From the NCBI GenBank assembly GCA_965649165.1, contig CBFGJT010000008.1:1-59968 (forward strand): DNA of 59,968 nt, read 5' to 3'. The translations under genes and the position numbers were made by a program. The DNA comes from a candidate division WOR-3 bacterium. GTDB lineage: Bacteria > Hydrothermota > Tepidihabitantia > Tepidihabitantales > Tepidihabitantaceae. Positions 4,949 to 57,412 of the stretch are shown in pieces (within the stretch, counting starts at the first letter, position 1; every line of letters begins with the position of its first letter). A model generated the notes under the pieces. That model ran no database searches. It was given only the letters and a program-made list of their open reading frames with translations, and was not told the origin of the DNA.

Positions 4949-5758
4949 TCAGTGCCGCGGTTTCGTCCGGCGCTTGGGTGAAAAGATCAGGGCCAGGGCA
5001 AAGATTAGGCTGGCGCTGCAGATGATGGCGGCACCGCTCGGGAGATCAAGCAGCCATGATAATACCAGACCGGTCAGACTGGCAAGTAGGGCAAAACCGG
5101 TGGAGAGCAGATACATAGTAGTGAGCCGGTAGGTGAGCTGATAGGCCGCCGAAGCCGGACTGACCACCAGGCTGAAGATCAGAAGACCGCCGATCGTGTT
5201 CAAGTTGAGGGTCACGGTCAGGGCACAGAGCACGAGCAGCGCGAAGAAGACCGCCCGTTCCGGAACCCCGACCGCCCGGGCGAGCTCCCGGTTGAACAGC
5301 ACCGCCCGGATCTCCTTGTTCAGCAAAACCAAAAACATACCGATAGCCAGCGTGTTCAAGCCGAGCAGAATAAGATCGGCGCCGCTGACAAGCAGAATAT
5401 TGCCCCAGATGAACCGCAGCGCCTCGGTGCGCGGACCGCGGAGTAGACCGATACCCAGAAATGCCAGACCGAGCATGAGGGAAAAGATCACGCCCAGCGA
5501 AACTCCGGGCTCCAGGTCGGCACGTTCCGCCACCGGTCCGATGAGCAGCGCCGCGCCTCCGGCAAAGAGTAGTGCAGTCAGGAGCGGGTTGATTCCCAAT
5601 AGCAGTCCGCAGACCGCACCGGCAAATGCGGCATGGGACATCGCCACACCGACAAAAGGGATGTTCAGTAGTACCACCCAGACTCCAACAATACCGCAGG
5701 CGATACTGCCGAAAACCGCTGCCAACAGAGGTTTGATGAGGAGCTGGAGTTCAGTCAT
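4949..5758 (-). CDS. metal ABC transporter permease (ZnuB/MntB-like, ABC-3 family)
   Basis: hydrophobic; AMSHAAFAG, IWGNILLV, FNRELARAVG, GGLLIFSLVVSP, PSGAAII; start MTELQLL at 5758. Confidence 0.9.
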   Translation of the reverse strand: MTELQLLIKPLLAAVFGSIACGIVGVWVVLLNIPFVGVAMSHAAFAGAVCGLLLGINPLLTALLFAGGAALLIGPVAERADLEPGVSLGVIFSLMLGLAFLGIGLLRGPRTEALRFIWGNILLVSGADLILLGLNTLAIGMFLVLLNKEIRAVLFNRELARAVGVPERAVFFALLVLCALTVTLNLNTIGGLLIFSLVVSPASAAYQLTYRLTTMYLLSTGFALLASLTGLVLSWLLDLPSGAAIICSASLIFALALIFSPKRRTKPRH

Positions 5759-6479
5759 TAAAAATGCTCTCCAGCCGTTCCGGCGCCAGTCCGCTTGCCC
5801 GTTCTCCCTGCCAGACAATCCGGCCCGCCTTCATCAGTACCACGTTTCTGCAGGCAGCTGGTAGCTGTTCAACCTGATGGGTCACCATCACGACCGTCAG
5901 CCGGTACCGATGATAAATCTCCTCGATCAAACTCAGAATCTCATTCACCGAGCGCCGGTCAAGACTGGCGGTCGGCTCATCGAGTAGGAGGATTTTCGGC
6001 TCCTGAAGTAGGGCGCAGGCCAGCGCCACCTTCTGCCGTTCACCACCAGAAACCTGTCCGACCGGCCGGTGGTTCAAGTGCTCAATCCGGAAGTAGCGCA
6101 TCAGTTCAGCTGCCCGCTGCCGGTCCGCTCGTGCCGGACGGTGGAGAATTCCGAGCCGACCGTAGATTCCGAGCAGGACCGCTTCTTGACAGTCAAACGG
6201 TAGGCGCGGGTCAAGGGCAAGGCCCTGGGGGACATAGCCGATCCGGCAGCGCCACTGCCTGAGGTTCCGGGAATTCAACTGCTCTCCAAAGAGGCGGACG
6301 GTGCCGGAATGTATTCTGCCCAGGCCGTTGACTACGGTCAGCAGGGTGGTCTTGCCAGCACCGTTCGGACCCAGGATGCCGACAAACTCACCAGGGTTGA
6401 TCTGCAATGAGATGCTGCGCAGGGCGGTGTGTTCAAAATAGCTTACCGTGACATTGCTGATCTCAATCGCGGGCGTCAC
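5751..6479 (-). CDS. metal ABC transporter ATP-binding protein (ZnuC-like)
   Basis: GPNGAGKTT, IGYVPQ, SGGERQ, LLLDEP, VTH. Confidence 0.92.
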   Translation of the reverse strand: MTPAIEISNVTVSYFEHTALRSISLQINPGEFVGILGPNGAGKTTLLTVVNGLGRIHSGTVRLFGEQLNSRNLRQWRCRIGYVPQGLALDPRLPFDCQEAVLLGIYGRLGILHRPARADRQRAAELMRYFRIEHLNHRPVGQVSGGERQKVALACALLQEPKILLLDEPTASLDRRSVNEILSLIEEIYHRYRLTVVMVTHQVEQLPAACRNVVLMKAGRIVWQGERASGLAPERLESIFND

Positions 6480-7294
6480 TTGATAACCTCAGCCAGCCGG
6501 CGGGTATTGTCGGACAGAGTTTGAAAATAGGAGCCTTCAAGCGGAAAGTTGCTCAGCGTCACATGCCCGATTCCGGCAGCACGGGCAAGCTCCCGGCCCG
6601 TATCCGGTCCGGACTGCAGATTGTCCACAATCAACCCGACTCCGGAATCAACAATCACCCGCGCCAGTCTTGAAAGCTCGCGGGCGGTCCAGTCTTCAGC
6701 CCGGCTATAGGTGCCAACCACCCGAAACCCGAGCCAGACGAGGAAGGGCGCCTGATGCTCCGCGGCGAGAACCCGGGGTAGGTTTCTGCCGGCAAACTCC
6801 GCCTGTATCTGTTTGCTCACCGAATCAATCTTCTGGAGATAGCGAGTCGCATTCTGCTGATAAACCAGGCTGTCATCCGGATCGATCTCAATCAGGAGTT
6901 GCAGGATCTCGCCCACCGCCTGCCGGTGAATATCCGGAATCATCCAGTTGCCGGTGGTTTTAAGTGTAACGATGCGTGCCCCTGGATTCCGGAGCTGCTC
7001 CTTCAGTTTTGCAAACCACCCCTCCCAGCCGTGATTGAGGATGAGCTGGGCTTCATTTGCCGCCACCAGTGCTGAAGGCTGAATGTCAAAATGGCCCGGG
7101 CAGAAGCCAGGTGGAGCAAGAGCAGTCACATTCACCCGCTCGCCACCGACCACATTCACAATGGTACTGATGAGGCTGGTGGTGGCAACAACCTTAATCC
7201 TTGCCGGTGCCTTGTGTCGGCAGCCGGGAACCACTACCAGCACAACGAAGAAACCGAAAAGCAGCTGCCTGAGAAAACGACTTTTAATCCCCAT
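6476..7294 (-). CDS. metal ABC transporter substrate-binding lipoprotein (cluster A-I/TroA-like, atypical ligands)
   Basis: lipobox-like VVPGC; KVVATTS...VGGERVNV; CPGH in place of DPH; operon context. Confidence 0.85.
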   Translation of the reverse strand: MGIKSRFLRQLLFGFFVVLVVVPGCRHKAPARIKVVATTSLISTIVNVVGGERVNVTALAPPGFCPGHFDIQPSALVAANEAQLILNHGWEGWFAKLKEQLRNPGARIVTLKTTGNWMIPDIHRQAVGEILQLLIEIDPDDSLVYQQNATRYLQKIDSVSKQIQAEFAGRNLPRVLAAEHQAPFLVWLGFRVVGTYSRAEDWTARELSRLARVIVDSGVGLIVDNLQSGPDTGRELARAAGIGHVTLSNFPLEGSYFQTLSDNTRRLAEVIK

Positions 7295-9128
7295 AATCTA
7301 CTCCGACCGTGAACGCCCGGCCCGGCATCAGATAGAGTCCAGCGGCAGTACCAGGTAGATCGGCATAAATCTGATACTGGCGGTTGAAGATGTTCTCTAC
7401 CGCCGCAAACAACCGCAACCCCTTAAGCAGCCGATAACCAGCACGGAGATCTGCGGTCCAGTAGGCGGGGATGGGTTGACGGCTGGAGTCAGCAGCAAAG
7501 TAGTTGCCGACATAATGAAAGCCGGCGTTAGCTTCAAACCGGGAGCGGTTGAAGCCGAGAATGAAGTCCAGCTTGGTCTCAGCGCGGCCCCGGGTGTGAA
7601 CACCAAAATCGCTAAAGGTGCCCGCACACCGGAGCACAAACGGCGCAAACCGGATGCTTAAGGCGGTCTCAAGTCCCTTGAAACGGAAATCGCCATGATT
7701 TTGATATCTTCTCGGTGGCGGCGGTATCGGGTTGGGCATCAGTTCAATCAGATTCTCGCCCCGGAGGACATAACCGCTGACATCGATCTCCGCCCATTTA
7801 CCCAGCTGCTGATTGACTCCGGCCTCGTAGTTCCAGGCGATCTCCGGTTTGAGCTCGGGATTGCTGGGCGGGAAGATGTGAGTGTAGTTCAGAGGCGGAT
7901 AGCGGAAGCCTCGGTTGATACTTAGTCGGAGCCGGGTAGTGTTGACCGGACTGATGACTATGCCCGCCTTCGGTGCCAGCACGCTGCCACTGATGTTGTC
8001 TAGGGCGAATCGCAATCCGGCATTGACCGTTACCGGTCCGAACCGCTGCTCATCCTGCGCAAACAGGTCAAGCTGATTACGGGACCAAGAGGGCCTGCTG
8101 GTATCGGACCTGAGCCAGGTACCGCCCAGATTTCTGACTTCCAGTCCGGCCTGAATCAGATTTCTGCCAGTGAGCTGACGATGGAGATGGACAAGACCGC
8201 CGTTTGTGTAATCGGTGGAATGCCAGCCGTCCCGGGGATCAAAGATGTGTTCGCCGAAAAGGCGGTAAAGTTTCACCAGACCCTGACCCAGACCGGTTCG
8301 GAAACTGCTGGTCAGGTCCAAACCGCCGCGGTCATAACGGTTCCAACCGGTTGCCACCAGTGTTTCAGGGTCGGTGACCCGCTTCGGTTCGTGCTTGACA
8401 CCGGTGAAGTATTTACCGGTGAAATCGAGTTCCAATGTCGAGGAGATGCGCCAGCCGGCGCGGAGGTTTAAGTCATTGCCGTTGTAGTGGGAATTGGGTA
8501 GATGGCCATCGGAGATTGCCTTATCAAAGGAGATAAGAAAGTTAACCGGCCGCTGGCGCGTGCCCACGCTCAACCGGAGCTGACCAGTATTGAAGGAGCC
8601 GTAGGAAAGCCGACCGCTAATGTCGAGTGGCTGCTGAGCCTGGCGAGTGATGATGTTGATCACTCCGCCTAGCGCATCTGAGCCGTAAAGCGCCGAAAGC
8701 GGACCGCGGACCAGTTCAATCCGCTCCACATTATTGAGCGGCAGCGAATGGGTAATCGTGCAGGAAAAGAGACTCATCTTCTCAGGCCGACCGTCAACCA
8801 GCACCGCCACCTGTGTGCCCCGAGCACCAAGACCACGGATGTCAATATCCGTCCGACCGAACTGACCGGTGCGGTGAATGAAGACGCCGGGCAGAAAGGC
8901 AAGGGCATCGGTTGCGGTTCGGGCAAGCGAGCGCCGGAGTTCCTCAGCGGTGAGGACACTGACCGCCGCTGCCACATCCCGGCGGTGATGCCGGAGCCGT
9001 TCTGCAGTTACCACCACATCCGGCAGCTGGAGTACTACCGAATCGCTGTGATTCCAGGGCGGACCCGCCCACACAATCGCAACACTGAAAACAAACAGGT
9101 TCAGGGCTAAAAGCATTTTGCCGTTCAT
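7284..9128 (-). CDS. TonB-dependent outer-membrane receptor (probable Ni/Co or metal complex)
   Basis: signal peptide, TonB box-like VVVTA, plug IDIRG...VLVDG...ERIELVRGPLSALYGSDALGGVINIIT, C-terminal VENIFN...PGRAFTVGVDY. Confidence 0.92.
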   Translation of the reverse strand: MNGKMLLALNLFVFSVAIVWAGPPWNHSDSVVLQLPDVVVTAERLRHHRRDVAAAVSVLTAEELRRSLARTATDALAFLPGVFIHRTGQFGRTDIDIRGLGARGTQVAVLVDGRPEKMSLFSCTITHSLPLNNVERIELVRGPLSALYGSDALGGVINIITRQAQQPLDISGRLSYGSFNTGQLRLSVGTRQRPVNFLISFDKAISDGHLPNSHYNGNDLNLRAGWRISSTLELDFTGKYFTGVKHEPKRVTDPETLVATGWNRYDRGGLDLTSSFRTGLGQGLVKLYRLFGEHIFDPRDGWHSTDYTNGGLVHLHRQLTGRNLIQAGLEVRNLGGTWLRSDTSRPSWSRNQLDLFAQDEQRFGPVTVNAGLRFALDNISGSVLAPKAGIVISPVNTTRLRLSINRGFRYPPLNYTHIFPPSNPELKPEIAWNYEAGVNQQLGKWAEIDVSGYVLRGENLIELMPNPIPPPPRRYQNHGDFRFKGLETALSIRFAPFVLRCAGTFSDFGVHTRGRAETKLDFILGFNRSRFEANAGFHYVGNYFAADSSRQPIPAYWTADLRAGYRLLKGLRLFAAVENIFNRQYQIYADLPGTAAGLYLMPGRAFTVGVDYGD

Positions 9129-9571
9129 CAGTCTGCCTCACTTGGTTTAATTTGATCCAGTAGGATCATACTTACCTTTCCCTGTTCCACCCCTTTGAGC
9201 GCGCTCAGCCGATCCGCAAGGATCTGAATCCGGCGCACCGGACCGCGCAAAAGCAGCACCTCAAGACAGTGGTGCGGGTCAAGATGGATATGAAGGGAAG
9301 ATATGATTTCGGTATAATGCTCATGGCCGAGCCGGGTGAGCCGCCGTATTACATCCCGGCGTTTATGATCATAGATTAGTGCCAGCGCTGCTACTGCCGC
9401 GCCGTTGCCTTGCCGCAGACGCCGTTCGGCAAGCCAGCGCCGGGCCAAATCACGCAGCGCCTCGGAGCGGCAGTTGTAGCCGGCGCGCCGGATCTCCTCG
9501 TTAAATTGCTGAAAGAGGTCAGCCTCAAACGAAACTCCGAACCGCGCAACCTTTGCCTTTGTCCTATCCAT
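9128..9571 (-). CDS. nikR: nickel-responsive transcriptional regulator
   Basis: RHH strand RFGVS, RSEALRDL, YDH, HEH and HIHLDPHHCLEV Ni ligands. Confidence 0.93.
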   Translation of the reverse strand: MDRTKAKVARFGVSFEADLFQQFNEEIRRAGYNCRSEALRDLARRWLAERRLRQGNGAAVAALALIYDHKRRDVIRRLTRLGHEHYTEIISSLHIHLDPHHCLEVLLLRGPVRRIQILADRLSALKGVEQGKVSMILLDQIKPSEAD

Positions 9572-9845
9572 GCCGCCGCAACCTCGCTACCAGAATGATA
9601 ATCAACCAGGCGATTACGACCGGCCCGGTCATGATCACCCCCAGGAGCAAGCCATTGGTGATCAAACCGTGGGTCTTTGCCTCTAAAAAGGGGCCACCTT
9701 CATAACCCATGATGTGGTCGACAAGAATCATCAGTGTACCTCCCCAAAACATTAGACTCAGAGACTTAAGCCCGTAGCGCCAATTGACGAACCGCCCGAG
9801 ACCGGTGATAAGCAAAGCGCCGAGCGCGATCGGTATCAGCCACAT
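9564..9845 (-). CDS. small (about 3 TM) membrane protein of unknown function, paralog of 9836-10168
   Basis: 93 aa hydrophobic; LSLMFWGGTLMILVDH...GPFLEA; overlaps both neighbours. Confidence 0.75.
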   Translation of the reverse strand: MWLIPIALGALLITGLGRFVNWRYGLKSLSLMFWGGTLMILVDHIMGYEGGPFLEAKTHGLITNGLLLGVIMTGPVVIAWLIIILVARLRRHG

Positions 9846-10168
9846 TGGTCCCTCCGCGCCGACTGACGATCCACCGCCTGGTTCAGTGTCAGCATCAGCA
9901 GCCAGATGAGAATAATAACCACTGTCATCGTCCCGCCAACCGTTACCATCTCCCGCAACATCTGAACGGTTTCAGTCGGTGAACGCATTGCCGTCAAAAA
10001 CGGAGGATAGGGGACGACCTCGCCGTGACTCACATGTTCAACCGCCAGCATTAATGAACCACCAAAAAGCATGCTGCTCAACCATTCCGGATGACTCGCC
10101 GCGGGTAGACGCCGACGGACCACAGTAGTGACCACGCCAGCTGCGGCTGGAACAAGAAAACAAGCCAT
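9836..10168 (-). CDS. small (about 3 TM) membrane protein of unknown function, first gene of the nikR operon
   Basis: 110 aa; MACFLVP N-terminus, LSSMLFGGSLMLAVEH...PPFLTA; SD GGAGG at 10174-10178. Confidence 0.8.
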   Translation of the reverse strand: MACFLVPAAAGVVTTVVRRRLPAASHPEWLSSMLFGGSLMLAVEHVSHGEVVPYPPFLTAMRSPTETVQMLREMVTVGGTMTVVIILIWLLMLTLNQAVDRQSARRDQCG

Positions 10169-10179
10169 TGTTACCTCCA

Positions 10180-10206
10180 GTGTTAATTTTTTTAAAAAAG
10201 TAACAA
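10180..10206. promoter_or_regulatory. putative NikR operator GTGTTAA-N13-GTAACAA
   Basis: imperfect palindrome with a T7A6 spacer; resembles the GTGTTAC-N13/14-GTAACAC motif proposed for deltaproteobacterial NikR; overlaps the -10 box. Confidence 0.75.
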
Positions 10207-10224
10207 TAAAAATTTTTAAGTCAA
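10197..10224 (-). promoter_or_regulatory. sigma70 promoter of the nikR/metal-uptake operon (TTGACT-16-TACTTT, extended TG)
   Basis: -35 at 10224-10219 and -10 at 10202-10197 on the minus strand. Confidence 0.65.
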
Positions 10225-10243
10225 GTTCGGCGGCCGACCTTGA

Positions 10244-56143: not shown

Positions 56144-57412
56144 ATGTTTACATCCCTGAGTACGCTCGGACTGGTGGCGATTTTTATCGGCGTACTGATT
56201 ACTATTCATGAATTCGGGCATCTAATCGTAGCCAAGCTGGTTCGGATTCCGGTTGACTCGTTTTCCATTGGTTTCGGTCCGGTAATACTGAAGAGGCGTA
56301 TCGGTGAAACTGAGTACCGGCTTTCACTCGTGCCACTCGGTGGATACATTAAAATGATTGGTGAGGATAATCCGGCGCAGGGAGGATTTAGCAGTAAGCC
56401 GGTCGGAGTCCGGGTAGCGGTGGTTGCTGCCGGTCCATTCTTCAATCTTATGCTGGGCTTTGTTCTGATTGTAGCTATGTATCTCATTTTCGGAGTTACT
56501 TCAGTCTCACCGCTGGTAACCCCTTTACCTGGCAGCGGAGCGGAGGTGGCAGGGTTGCAGGCAGGGGACCGGATACTTGCAGTTGCCGATGATACTGTTC
56601 CGGATTTTGAAACCTTGCAGCAGCTCCTGATGAAGCATCGGGGGGAAGAGGTTGCAGTCACGGCTCGACGGGGGGACAACAGGTTGGTTTTCCAGTATCT
56701 GGTTCCCGAAACACTGGAACTGGAGCCGTTCATTCCACCGGTGATTGACCGGGTGCGCGCCGGGAGTCCGGCGGCAAGACTCGGGCTTCGTCCTGGCGAC
56801 CGTATACTGACGGTCGGGGGGAATGAGGTTCAGAGCTGGGAACAGTTTGTCAGTGTGGTTCGCGAGCATGGCGCGGTGCCGATTGAACTTCGGTGGCAGC
56901 GGGGAGAATCTCTGTATGTCGATTCAATCGTTCCGGTGCTGGAGCAGGATCAGCTGACTCGGGAACGGTTTGGCCAGATCGGGGTCTGGGTGCGTCTGCC
57001 CCGCAGGACGATGTCGCTGCCGCAGGCTGTGTGGGACGGGGCAAGGCGTACCGGCTACATAACGGTTCAGACCTTCGTAATCATTTACAAGGTGATTACC
57101 CGGAAGATATCCTCTCGGGCGATTGGTGGACCGATCATGGTTGCCAAGATTGCCTGGGAAGGAGCGAGCTGGGGATGGGAGTATTTTCTGGCGCTCTGGG
57201 CGCTGCTCTCCATCAATCTGTTTGTTGTCAATATGTTGCCGGTGCCGGTGCTCGATGGGGGACGGATTCTGCTGGATGTTGTTGCCGGTATTCGGCGTCG
57301 GCCGTTTTCCGACCGGGAACTCACTTGGGCGAACAGCTTCGGCTGGGCTGTGATTGGGATACTTGTGGCGCTTACGCTGCTTAATGATCTCAGACGGCTG
57401 CTTTTCAAGTGA
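56144..57412 (+). CDS. rseP: RIP metalloprotease RseP
   Basis: HEFGH, PLGGYIKM, AGPFFN, two PDZ domains, GPI, NMLPVPVLDGG. Confidence 0.95.
   Translation: MFTSLSTLGLVAIFIGVLITIHEFGHLIVAKLVRIPVDSFSIGFGPVILKRRIGETEYRLSLVPLGGYIKMIGEDNPAQGGFSSKPVGVRVAVVAAGPFFNLMLGFVLIVAMYLIFGVTSVSPLVTPLPGSGAEVAGLQAGDRILAVADDTVPDFETLQQLLMKHRGEEVAVTARRGDNRLVFQYLVPETLELEPFIPPVIDRVRAGSPAARLGLRPGDRILTVGGNEVQSWEQFVSVVREHGAVPIELRWQRGESLYVDSIVPVLEQDQLTRERFGQIGVWVRLPRRTMSLPQAVWDGARRTGYITVQTFVIIYKVITRKISSRAIGGPIMVAKIAWEGASWGWEYFLALWALLSINLFVVNMLPVPVLDGGRILLDVVAGIRRRPFSDRELTWANSFGWAVIGILVALTLLNDLRRLLFK

Follow-up and report, generated by a model that had tools for sequence, protein, structure and literature searches.

Few nickel importer families are listed in surveys of the field: the pertinent passages of PMC2667541 and PMC11247825 name NikABCDE, Nik/CbiMNQO, NiCoT, HupE/UreJ and UreH, and only three for archaea. 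The NiCoT proteins (HoxN, NixA) and HupE/UreJ are listed in these passages as secondary nickel transporters. In Helicobacter pylori, according to excerpts of PMC7840056, PMC5140060 and PMC11247825, the receptors FrpB4 and FecA3, the permease NixA and the ATP-binding cassette (ABC) importer NiuBDE operate under NikR. The NikR signal, as given for delta-proteobacteria in the relevant section of PMC545781, reads GTGTTAC-[N13/14]-GTAACAC or contains the half-sites in reversed order. The locus presented here lies on a stretch of 59,968 nt from a candidate division WOR-3 bacterium (contig CBFGJT010000008.1, hereafter the window). It is a minus-strand operon headed by orfA and orfB, which encode two small predicted membrane proteins (together OrfAB) and are followed by nikR, a TonB receptor gene and the genes of an ABC importer. 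An earlier note, made from the sequence alone, had taken this operon for a candidate metal-uptake system. A family resembling OrfAB is not among the importers in the said passages of PMC2667541 and PMC11247825. Judged from the comparative data set out below, it is likely that the pair serves nickel import and, with somewhat less assurance, probable that OrfAB is a self-sufficient heteromeric Ni(II) permease, whose outward-facing site would consist of the OrfA N-terminus (M-A-C), an EHxxHxE motif and an Asp of OrfB.

To understand the regulation of the pair, its upstream regions were compared. OrfA relatives were detected in 458 species genomes by a scan of one genome per species, and 80 loci (L numbers) from Thermoplasmatota, DPANN archaea, Patescibacteria, Omnitrophota, Atribacter and WOR-3-like bacteria were kept for neighbourhood counts. 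In the 78 evaluable loci, the 133 nt upstream of the pair's first gene were scanned for both half-site orders of PMC545781. NikR-type boxes matching at least 11 of the 14 positions occurred in 43 of these loci, corresponding to 4.72 boxes per kb compared to 0.088 per kb elsewhere in the loci (54-fold). At a threshold of at least 12/14, boxes were found in 30 loci and the enrichment was 246-fold. Bacterial and some DPANN loci revealed the order GTGTTAC-N13-GTAACAC, which is complete (14/14) upstream of orfA in L056, while the boxes of Thermoplasmatota have the reversed order and often lie directly on the GAGGTG ribosome-binding site. The box of the window stops 11 nt ahead of the orfA start codon ATG, inside a 75-nt spacer, and the orthologous boxes of L002, L003 and L015 are placed identically. 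Another 14/14 box, in L032, lies 23 nt upstream of nikR and not of the pair. Fourteen box-positive loci do not contain an adjacent nikR gene; the genomes of eight of them were searched, and six carry nikR elsewhere.

The genes surrounding the pair point in the same direction. All 785 open reading frames (ORFs) within 5 kb were clustered without prior bias and the cluster representatives were scanned with Pfam. The nickel-related clusters obtained were NikR (31 loci), HypF (11), LarC (Ni_insertion; 7), LarB (AIRC; 6), a LarE-type PP-loop protein (6) and HypA (5). Further recurrent neighbours were an amino-acid permease (8 loci), an Mrp/NUBPL ATPase (7) and deoxyhypusine synthase (5). The loci were also probed by tblastn with the seven proteins encoded in the window, which gave NikR in 34 of the 80 loci. 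The neighbourhood survey proposed in the earlier note as a check for linkage to metal genes thus turned out positive, with nikR, hyp and lar genes close to the pair. From boxes and neighbours, it is very likely that OrfAB belongs to the nickel (NikR) regulon.

Genome content was tallied for 50 of the 80 carrier genomes, which are incomplete and were chosen mainly for longer flanks, not randomly. The large subunit of [NiFe]-hydrogenase was found in 47 of them, NikR in 33 and LarC in 22. Known importers were rare, namely CbiM/NikM in four and EcfT/CbiQ in five genomes, and neither NiCoT (over the cut-off) nor HupE/UreJ was detected in any of the 50. In an even sample of 300 patescibacterial genomes from which the seed genome was excluded, hydrogenase was present in 5/5 OrfA-positive but only in 56/295 OrfA-negative genomes (one-sided Fisher p = 3e-4, a value that is optimistic since related genomes are not independent). 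The genome to which the window belongs (1.37 Mb, 30 contigs) encodes HypA and a hydrogenase large subunit with the nickel-binding motifs RICGICSNSH and DPCYCCTER; CbiM, NiCoT and LarC were not found in this genome, which is 76% complete. The close association with hydrogenase, together with hypF and hypA as neighbours, would also be expected of a membrane factor specific to the assembly or anchoring of [NiFe]-hydrogenase. This explanation is highly improbable because larB, larC and larE next to the pair point to a second, unrelated nickel cofactor, and because NikR control suits supply better than assembly. Moreover, in the genomes checked, the pair mostly does not adjoin the hydrogenase structural genes, the exception being G063 with a distance of approximately 8 kb.

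The metal itself might be another one. Nickel and cobalt transporters are often related, as stated in a passage of PMC2667541, the patescibacterial loci lack NikR control, and the operon of the window contains an ABC system of the Zn/Mn type. OrfAB could therefore import cobalt, iron or zinc, or have a broad range, the nickel link being partial. The abundance of NikR operators upstream of the pair makes this very unlikely, and its neighbours are hyp and lar genes rather than cobalamin genes. Additionally, 12 loci lacking nikR (138 kb in total) were searched for cobalamin and other riboswitches, and none was found.

OrfA and OrfB are true paralogs. By BLASTP they are 29% identical over 91 residues (E 4e-6), and hhalign with profiles of 35 orthologs each gave a probability of 97.9% (E 4.6e-13). 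The two 16-residue stretches quoted in the earlier note are indeed identical at 9/16 positions, PFLxA occurs in both proteins and OrfA begins with MAC. A word-indexed search retrieved 611 OrfA relatives, and the 120 of them that were listed are all designated 'hypothetical' or unnamed, without a precomputed Pfam domain. An exhaustive profile search yielded 491 clusters (50% identity) at E ≤ 0.001, all unnamed, including 306 at E ≤ 1e-10. Neither OrfA nor OrfB could be assigned to a Pfam or NCBIfam family, the only hits being noise (Tricorn_C1, E 0.2; BPSS1780, 17.9 bits at a cut-off of 90). CbiM (even at E up to 1), NicO (PF03824) and HupE_UreJ (PF04955) were not matched in the Pfam scan, a profile search of the alignment against PDB sequences gave 0 matches at E up to 10, and a protein atlas search returned only unnamed, mostly archaeal clusters. 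The proposed hidden Markov model check of OrfA and OrfB thus revealed no characterised family, be it metal-related or not. No account of the family was found in the open-access literature exclusive of supplements, so that a mention in a supplementary table is possible.

The alignments disclosed a conspicuous set of conserved residues, and the degree of conservation is extreme in view of the small protein size. Invariant in OrfA are M1, A2 and C3, W29, G36 and G37, E44, H45, H48 and E50, the segment P56-F57-L58-T59-A60, E73, G78, M81 and W89. OrfB has the invariant residues M1, W2, G35, M39, D43, L68 and W80, and H44 is present in at least 90% of the sequences. Among 241 members of the OrfA family carrying the core motif, 197 start with M-[A/G]-C, and in at least 14 of the others the start was called too far upstream, so that MACF lies inside the sequence. 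The invariance of the extreme N-terminus suggests that the terminus itself is functional. A lipoprotein signal was considered for MAC and rejected, as there is neither a signal peptide nor a lipobox ahead of the Cys. Within the family, a subfamily (clusters P0126, P0128, P0144, P0172 and others) possesses a Lys/Glu-rich insertion of 20-45 residues in loop 1, between helices 1 and 2. It retains the MACF start and EHxWHGE and includes most of the natural fusions described below.

The AlphaFold2 model of OrfA (predicted local distance difference test, pLDDT, 88.7) comprises three helices, at positions 5-20, 27-47 and 64-109, in accordance with the roughly three membrane spans read from the sequence before. 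A Foldseek search against the PDB gave 0 matches at E ≤ 0.001 (best values 2.4 for the OrfA model and 0.79 for a fusion model), though small models search weakly. Since no Ni/Co transporter family, PDB sequence or PDB fold was matched, the statement that OrfAB is not a described Ni/Co uptake architecture stands. Basic loops of membrane proteins face the cytoplasm (positive-inside rule). Loop 1 contains on average 4.0 Lys and Arg residues in OrfA and 3.0 in OrfB, the C-terminal tail 2.8 and 3.7. Loop 2 has only 0.6 and 0.4, and the numbers of Asp and Glu in it are 3.2 and 3.4, respectively. According to this rule, the same charge bias predicts for both subunits an orientation with the N-terminus outside and the C-terminus inside (N-out/C-in). 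An antiparallel pair with dual topology was rejected because the bias is alike in both subunits. The predicted complex of OrfA and OrfB reached a score of 0.14 (mark 0.32), which counts neither way.

Nine clusters represent natural fusions of the two proteins (P0122, P0131, P0144, P0172, P0173, P0198, P0212, P0218 and P0232). All nine consist of OrfA followed by an OrfB part that is deprived of its first helix. Behind the three helices of OrfA, helices 2 and 3 of OrfB can keep their orientation only if such a loss occurs. The fusions retain C3, E44, H45, E50, the PF-TA loop and the Asp of the B part, while the His following this Asp is variable. An AlphaFold2 model of P0131, computed with 9 sequences, revealed five long helices in one chain (pLDDT 80.0; predicted template modelling score 0.70). 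Using the OrfB query, 79 of the 80 loci gave a tblastn match, but in L018, L059 and L063 it was a self-match of OrfA, which leaves 76 loci with a separate orfB. The adjacency in 76/80 loci and the natural fusions indicate that OrfA and OrfB very probably act together. In the earlier note, a heterodimeric Met/His/Cys metal-handling module had been suggested. Paralogy with conserved Cys, His, Glu and Asp residues, adjacency and fusions speak for the module, but its ligands were only partly right, as the invariant candidates are C3, E44, H45, H48 and E50 of OrfA and D43 of OrfB.

In 78 loci, the gene order is orfA-orfB in 45 and orfB-orfA in 30 cases, and three contain orfA only. The latter are L018, L059 and L063, where a separate orfB was not detected beside orfA. 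The L018 protein has IIDHVISGE at the place where the EHxxHGE motif is expected. OrfA of these loci may be a homomeric form, or the partner may be too divergent for detection. L047 is truncated by a contig end. Two loci of one Thermoplasmata assembly, L010 and L017, each contain a nikR/orfB/orfA unit, and the regions upstream of the two units hardly differ; either the module has been duplicated or the assembly contains it twice.

While the pair is widespread, the other uptake genes of the window are not. The TonB receptor was found by tblastn in 3/80 loci (L003, L015, L060), ZnuA likewise in 3/80 and ABC-3 in the same number (both L003, L015, L045), and the ABC ATPase in 9/80. Archaea and Patescibacteria, to which most OrfA carriers belong, do not possess an outer membrane. 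Both the low counts and this distribution argue for an autonomous module. Considering also that both gene orders occur, the seven-gene operon appears to be special to the window's close relatives, whereas the two-gene pair is the conserved unit. The assumption that the pair works with a TonB receptor and a ZnuABC-type importer consequently holds for the closest relatives of the window only. An energiser of the ExbB/ExbD type was rejected owing to the wrong size and helix number and because the pair occurs in organisms lacking an outer membrane.

Even so, OrfAB could be an accessory or substrate-capture subunit needing the ABC-3 importer of this operon or an energiser encoded elsewhere, just as an S-component of energy-coupling factor (ECF) transporters depends on EcfT/EcfA. 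S-components have approximately 200 amino acids and six helices, which is the size of OrfA and OrfB together, and N-terminal metal binding has a precedent in NikM/CbiM. In the window, L003 and L015, the pair and ZnuABC-type genes are part of one operon, and in L045, a member of another phylum, such genes lie beside the pair. An accessory role is nevertheless unlikely in view of the rarity of ZnuA, ABC-3 and ABC ATPase genes in the loci and of EcfT/CbiQ in the carrier genomes. There is also no CbiM match and no significant match to an S-component fold (BioY, 4dve: E 2.4, TM-score 0.30).

If OrfAB is a self-sufficient permease, substrate, direction of transport, subunit composition, topology, coordination chemistry and energy source may be envisaged as follows. 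Both subunits would insert N-out/C-in and pack in parallel, yielding a six-helix bundle. Its outer face would contain M-A-C-F of OrfA, EHxxHxE where helix 2 reaches this face, the PPFLTAM loop following it and Asp43(-His44) of OrfB, the position of Asp43 being equivalent to that of Glu44 in OrfA. Methionine aminopeptidase tends to cleave off the initiator Met if residue 2 is small. As this residue is always Ala or Gly in OrfA, removal is predicted, and it would expose a free amine beside the Cys. A protein starting with M-W, such as OrfB, should retain its Met. The conserved outer elements are predicted to form jointly a nickel-capture site at the subunit interface, from which Ni(II) would move inward. 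An ATPase is presumably not needed for this step, as indicated by the few genomes with EcfT/CbiQ and the few loci with an ABC ATPase. The driving force of transport might be the membrane potential or a sink in the cytoplasm, which is pure speculation. When nickel is plentiful, Ni-NikR would bind to the operator beside the ribosome-binding site and switch the genes off.

The nickel linkage would also be expected if OrfAB handled nickel without importing it, be it as an exporter or overflow valve, as a membrane sensor, or as a store or chaperone feeding HypA or LarC. The small size and the conserved ligand set suit a binding or sensing protein, and the pair adjoins maturation genes. On the other hand, exporters are usually induced by nickel via other regulators, the conserved ligands lie, by prediction, on the outer side, and no output domain for signalling is present. 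Furthermore, the operators are located at the ribosome-binding site or promoter, as described for repressed uptake genes in the section of PMC545781 concerned. A function other than import is for these reasons quite unlikely, and the sensor and metal-stripping readings raised in the earlier note are less likely than import.

The features of the operon are compiled in Table 1.

Table 1. Coordinates of the genes and regulatory elements of the operon in the window
Feature	Position	Strand	Characteristics
Perfect 8-nt inverted repeat	10167..10207		ATTGTTAC-N25-GTAACAAT; arms 10167-10174 and 10200-10207
NikR-type operator	10180..10206		TTGTTAC-N13-TTAACAC on the coding strand; 12/14 compared to GTGTTAC-[N13/14]-GTAACAC
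orfA	9836-10168	-	110 aa; predicted 3-helix membrane protein, unnamed family
orfB	9564-9845	-	93 aa; OrfA paralog
nikR	9128-9571	-	Nickel-responsive ribbon-helix-helix repressor; NikR_C 4.3e-28
TonB-dependent outer-membrane receptor	7284-9128	-	Plug 1.3e-24, barrel 7.5e-35
ZnuA/MntC-type (cluster A-I) binding protein	6476-7294	-	ZnuA 2.2e-29
ABC transporter ATPase	5751-6479	-	ABC_tran 8.7e-37
ABC-3 family permease	4949-5758 (ORF open to TTG at 5818)	-	ABC-3 1.1e-48

The palindrome that had been noticed ahead of the operon is this NikR-type inverted repeat, whose arms (10181-10192 and 10194-10205) are 92% complementary. A third GTAAC-type half-site (10167-10174) overlaps the orfA start codon; NikR might make a second contact there, or the half-site might act in translation. 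A sigma-70 scan detected no promoter in the 10169-10243 spacer upstream of orfA. Sequencing runs, including RNA runs, were looked up for this region, and none was listed. By eye, TTGACT was recognised upstream of the box, and the orthologous loci L001, L002, L003 and L015 have TTGAC at the corresponding position. Only one other site in the window reached 11/14 (56687-56714, GTTTTCC-N14-GAAACAC), probably by chance at such a score.

As previously claimed, the seven minus-strand ORFs between 4949 and 10168 overlap head to tail. From orfA/orfB to binding protein/ATPase, the overlaps amount to 10, 8, 1, 11 and 4 nt. The overlap of the ATPase and permease genes is 8 nt with the ATG start at 5758 and 68 nt with the TTG at 5818. 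The operon is preceded by uvrC on the same strand and followed by a converging pckA-like gene, both named by eye. Pfam and NCBIfam confirmed all five named genes. NikR scored 97.8 bits for NikR_C (cut-off 22) and 147.5 bits for the NCBIfam equivalog NF003381 (cut-off 105), while RHH_1 was slightly below its cut-off (17.5 bits, cut-off 20.5). Its translation contains the pattern H-x10-H-x-H-x5-C (HEHYTEIISSLHIHLDPHHC, read from the sequence), which we take to be the high-affinity nickel ligands, three His and one Cys in E. coli numbering.

The TonB receptor comprises a Plug (87.2 bits) and a barrel domain (122.1 bits) but did not match a substrate-specific NCBIfam equivalog at the cut-off. The components of the cluster A-I importer scored 103.2 (ZnuA), 166.5 (ABC-3) and 127.2 bits (ABC_tran). 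In an alignment of the binding protein with 5hx7 and 5jg7, its CPGH stands opposite the ligand motif DPHE of MntA (5hx7), and there is a gap at the second His motif of SitA, so that the canonical His ligands were not encountered. The orthologs of L003 and L015 have CPGHFD, that of L045 CPASFD. Due to the conservation of the CPGH variant in L003 and L015, the ABC system is perhaps not one for zinc or manganese, and the metal bound may be none of Zn, Mn and Fe. Within the operon, the receptor would let nickel, as such or chelated, pass the outer membrane, and the atypical ZnuABC-type system would provide a second inner-membrane route. In L045 (Planctomycetaceae), ZnuA-type, ATPase and ABC-3 genes (5329-8631) are located directly upstream of orfA-orfB. 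This locus does not contain nikR, but NikR_C matches exist elsewhere in the genome. The WOR-3-like locus L060 has a 13/14 NikR box (133-159) and a 232-aa ORF (226-924) directly before orfA-orfB-nikR-receptor. The encoded protein, with a hydrophobic N-terminus, a Gly/aromatic-rich composition, a C-terminal Phe and no Pfam match, looks like a small outer-membrane barrel.

Several observations weigh against a self-sufficient nickel permease. The operon of the window already encodes a complete ABC importer, beside which a second inner-membrane route looks redundant. In L045 the pair is found next to a ZnuABC-type system for a second time and independently, leaving room for an accessory role in diderms. 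A solved transporter with a similar fold was not found, so that there is no precedent for so small a bundle moving a divalent cation, and the fusion model was built on only 9 sequences. Regarding nickel, patescibacterial loci contain neither nikR nor a box, and their link to this metal is solely the co-occurrence with hydrogenase in five genomes that are not independent. Hydrogenase was not found in 3/50 carrier genomes, all counted as incomplete. In divergent nikR/orfBA loci, the box could serve autoregulation of nikR alone. The importer tallies do not include NikABCDE-type systems, which Pfam cannot separate from Opp/Dpp, and they do not establish that other nickel importers are missing. Moreover, 46 of 62 hydrogenase-positive Patescibacteria have no OrfA, CbiM or NiCoT match (NiCoT 0/62). 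As the absence of a known importer is common in this group, it is weak evidence. The overlap of OrfA and CbiM in the same 62 genomes is 0 compared to 0.97 expected, which is not significant (P = 0.33).

Most of the hydrogenase-bearing genomes of Thermoplasmatota, DPANN archaea and Patescibacteria examined contain none of the specific importers tested. The source of their nickel is thus a gap, which bears on H2 metabolism and on the nickel-pincer (Lar) enzymes. Tentatively, and with a chance slightly short of even, OrfA and OrfB could constitute a new minimal transporter class which captures Ni(II) at the subunit interface by a processed amine-Cys terminus together with Glu, His and Asp, works without an ATPase and is the main nickel entry of hydrogenase-bearing Thermoplasmatota, DPANN archaea, Patescibacteria, Omnitrophota and WOR-3 bacteria. 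We know of no nickel transporter smaller than a two-subunit importer of approximately 200 aa, and if the proposal is true, OrfAB with this size would be the smallest one known. It would then also be a marker of nickel use for genome annotation and a very small model for transition-metal selectivity and transport in membrane proteins. New are the protein family and its architecture, while the category, NikR-controlled nickel uptake, is familiar.

What OrfAB has in common with the described systems, and what separates it from them, can be summarized as follows. As in E. coli nikABCDE-nikR and the delta-proteobacterial nik(MN)QO/nikKMLQO operons presented in the cited section of PMC545781, the repressor gene of the window adjoins the uptake genes. 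Half-sites, spacing and shut-off logic of the NikR-repressed uptake operons in that section recur in the OrfAB loci. Contrary to nikABCDE and nikKMLQO, OrfAB belongs neither to the Opp-type ABC systems nor to the ECF systems, and EcfT is missing from most carriers. The seven genes of the window read like the set of H. pylori, as far as it is covered by the excerpts cited above, with a TonB-dependent receptor, an ABC importer and a separate permease under NikR. However, a single operon holds all the parts, the importer is a ZnuABC-type one with an altered motif, and the permease is an unnamed pair.

NikM and CbiM bind metal via their N-terminal amine and start with Met-His. OrfA resembles them in its invariant extreme N-terminus, which is predicted to lie outside and whose terminal amine is probably a metal ligand. 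By contrast, OrfA starts with M-A-C instead of M-H, two 3-helix subunits take the place of one 7-helix protein, CbiM was not matched, and T and A components are missing from most OrfAB carriers. NiCoT proteins possess eight helices with the signature HX4DH in helix 2, and HupE/UreJ six helices. Common to these and OrfAB is a presumed ATPase-independent uptake, and the EH (OrfA) and DH (OrfB) within a transmembrane helix recall HX4DH. The subunits of approximately 100 aa with three helices differ from the eight or six helices per chain, and neither family nor fold matched. Transporters made of two 3-helix units are known from SemiSWEET dimers and the MPC1/MPC2 heterodimer. In OrfAB, too, the path would be made up of two small subunits with three helices each, which in this case are paralogs, but no similarity in sequence or fold was detected and the substrate would be a metal ion. 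Finally, in the nickel hook of Ni-superoxide dismutase, a processed N-terminal amine beside a Cys thiolate binds nickel. Although the hook belongs to an enzyme active site with another sequence, and removal of Met from OrfA is only predicted, the processed N-terminus of OrfA would offer the same combination of an amine and an adjacent Cys.

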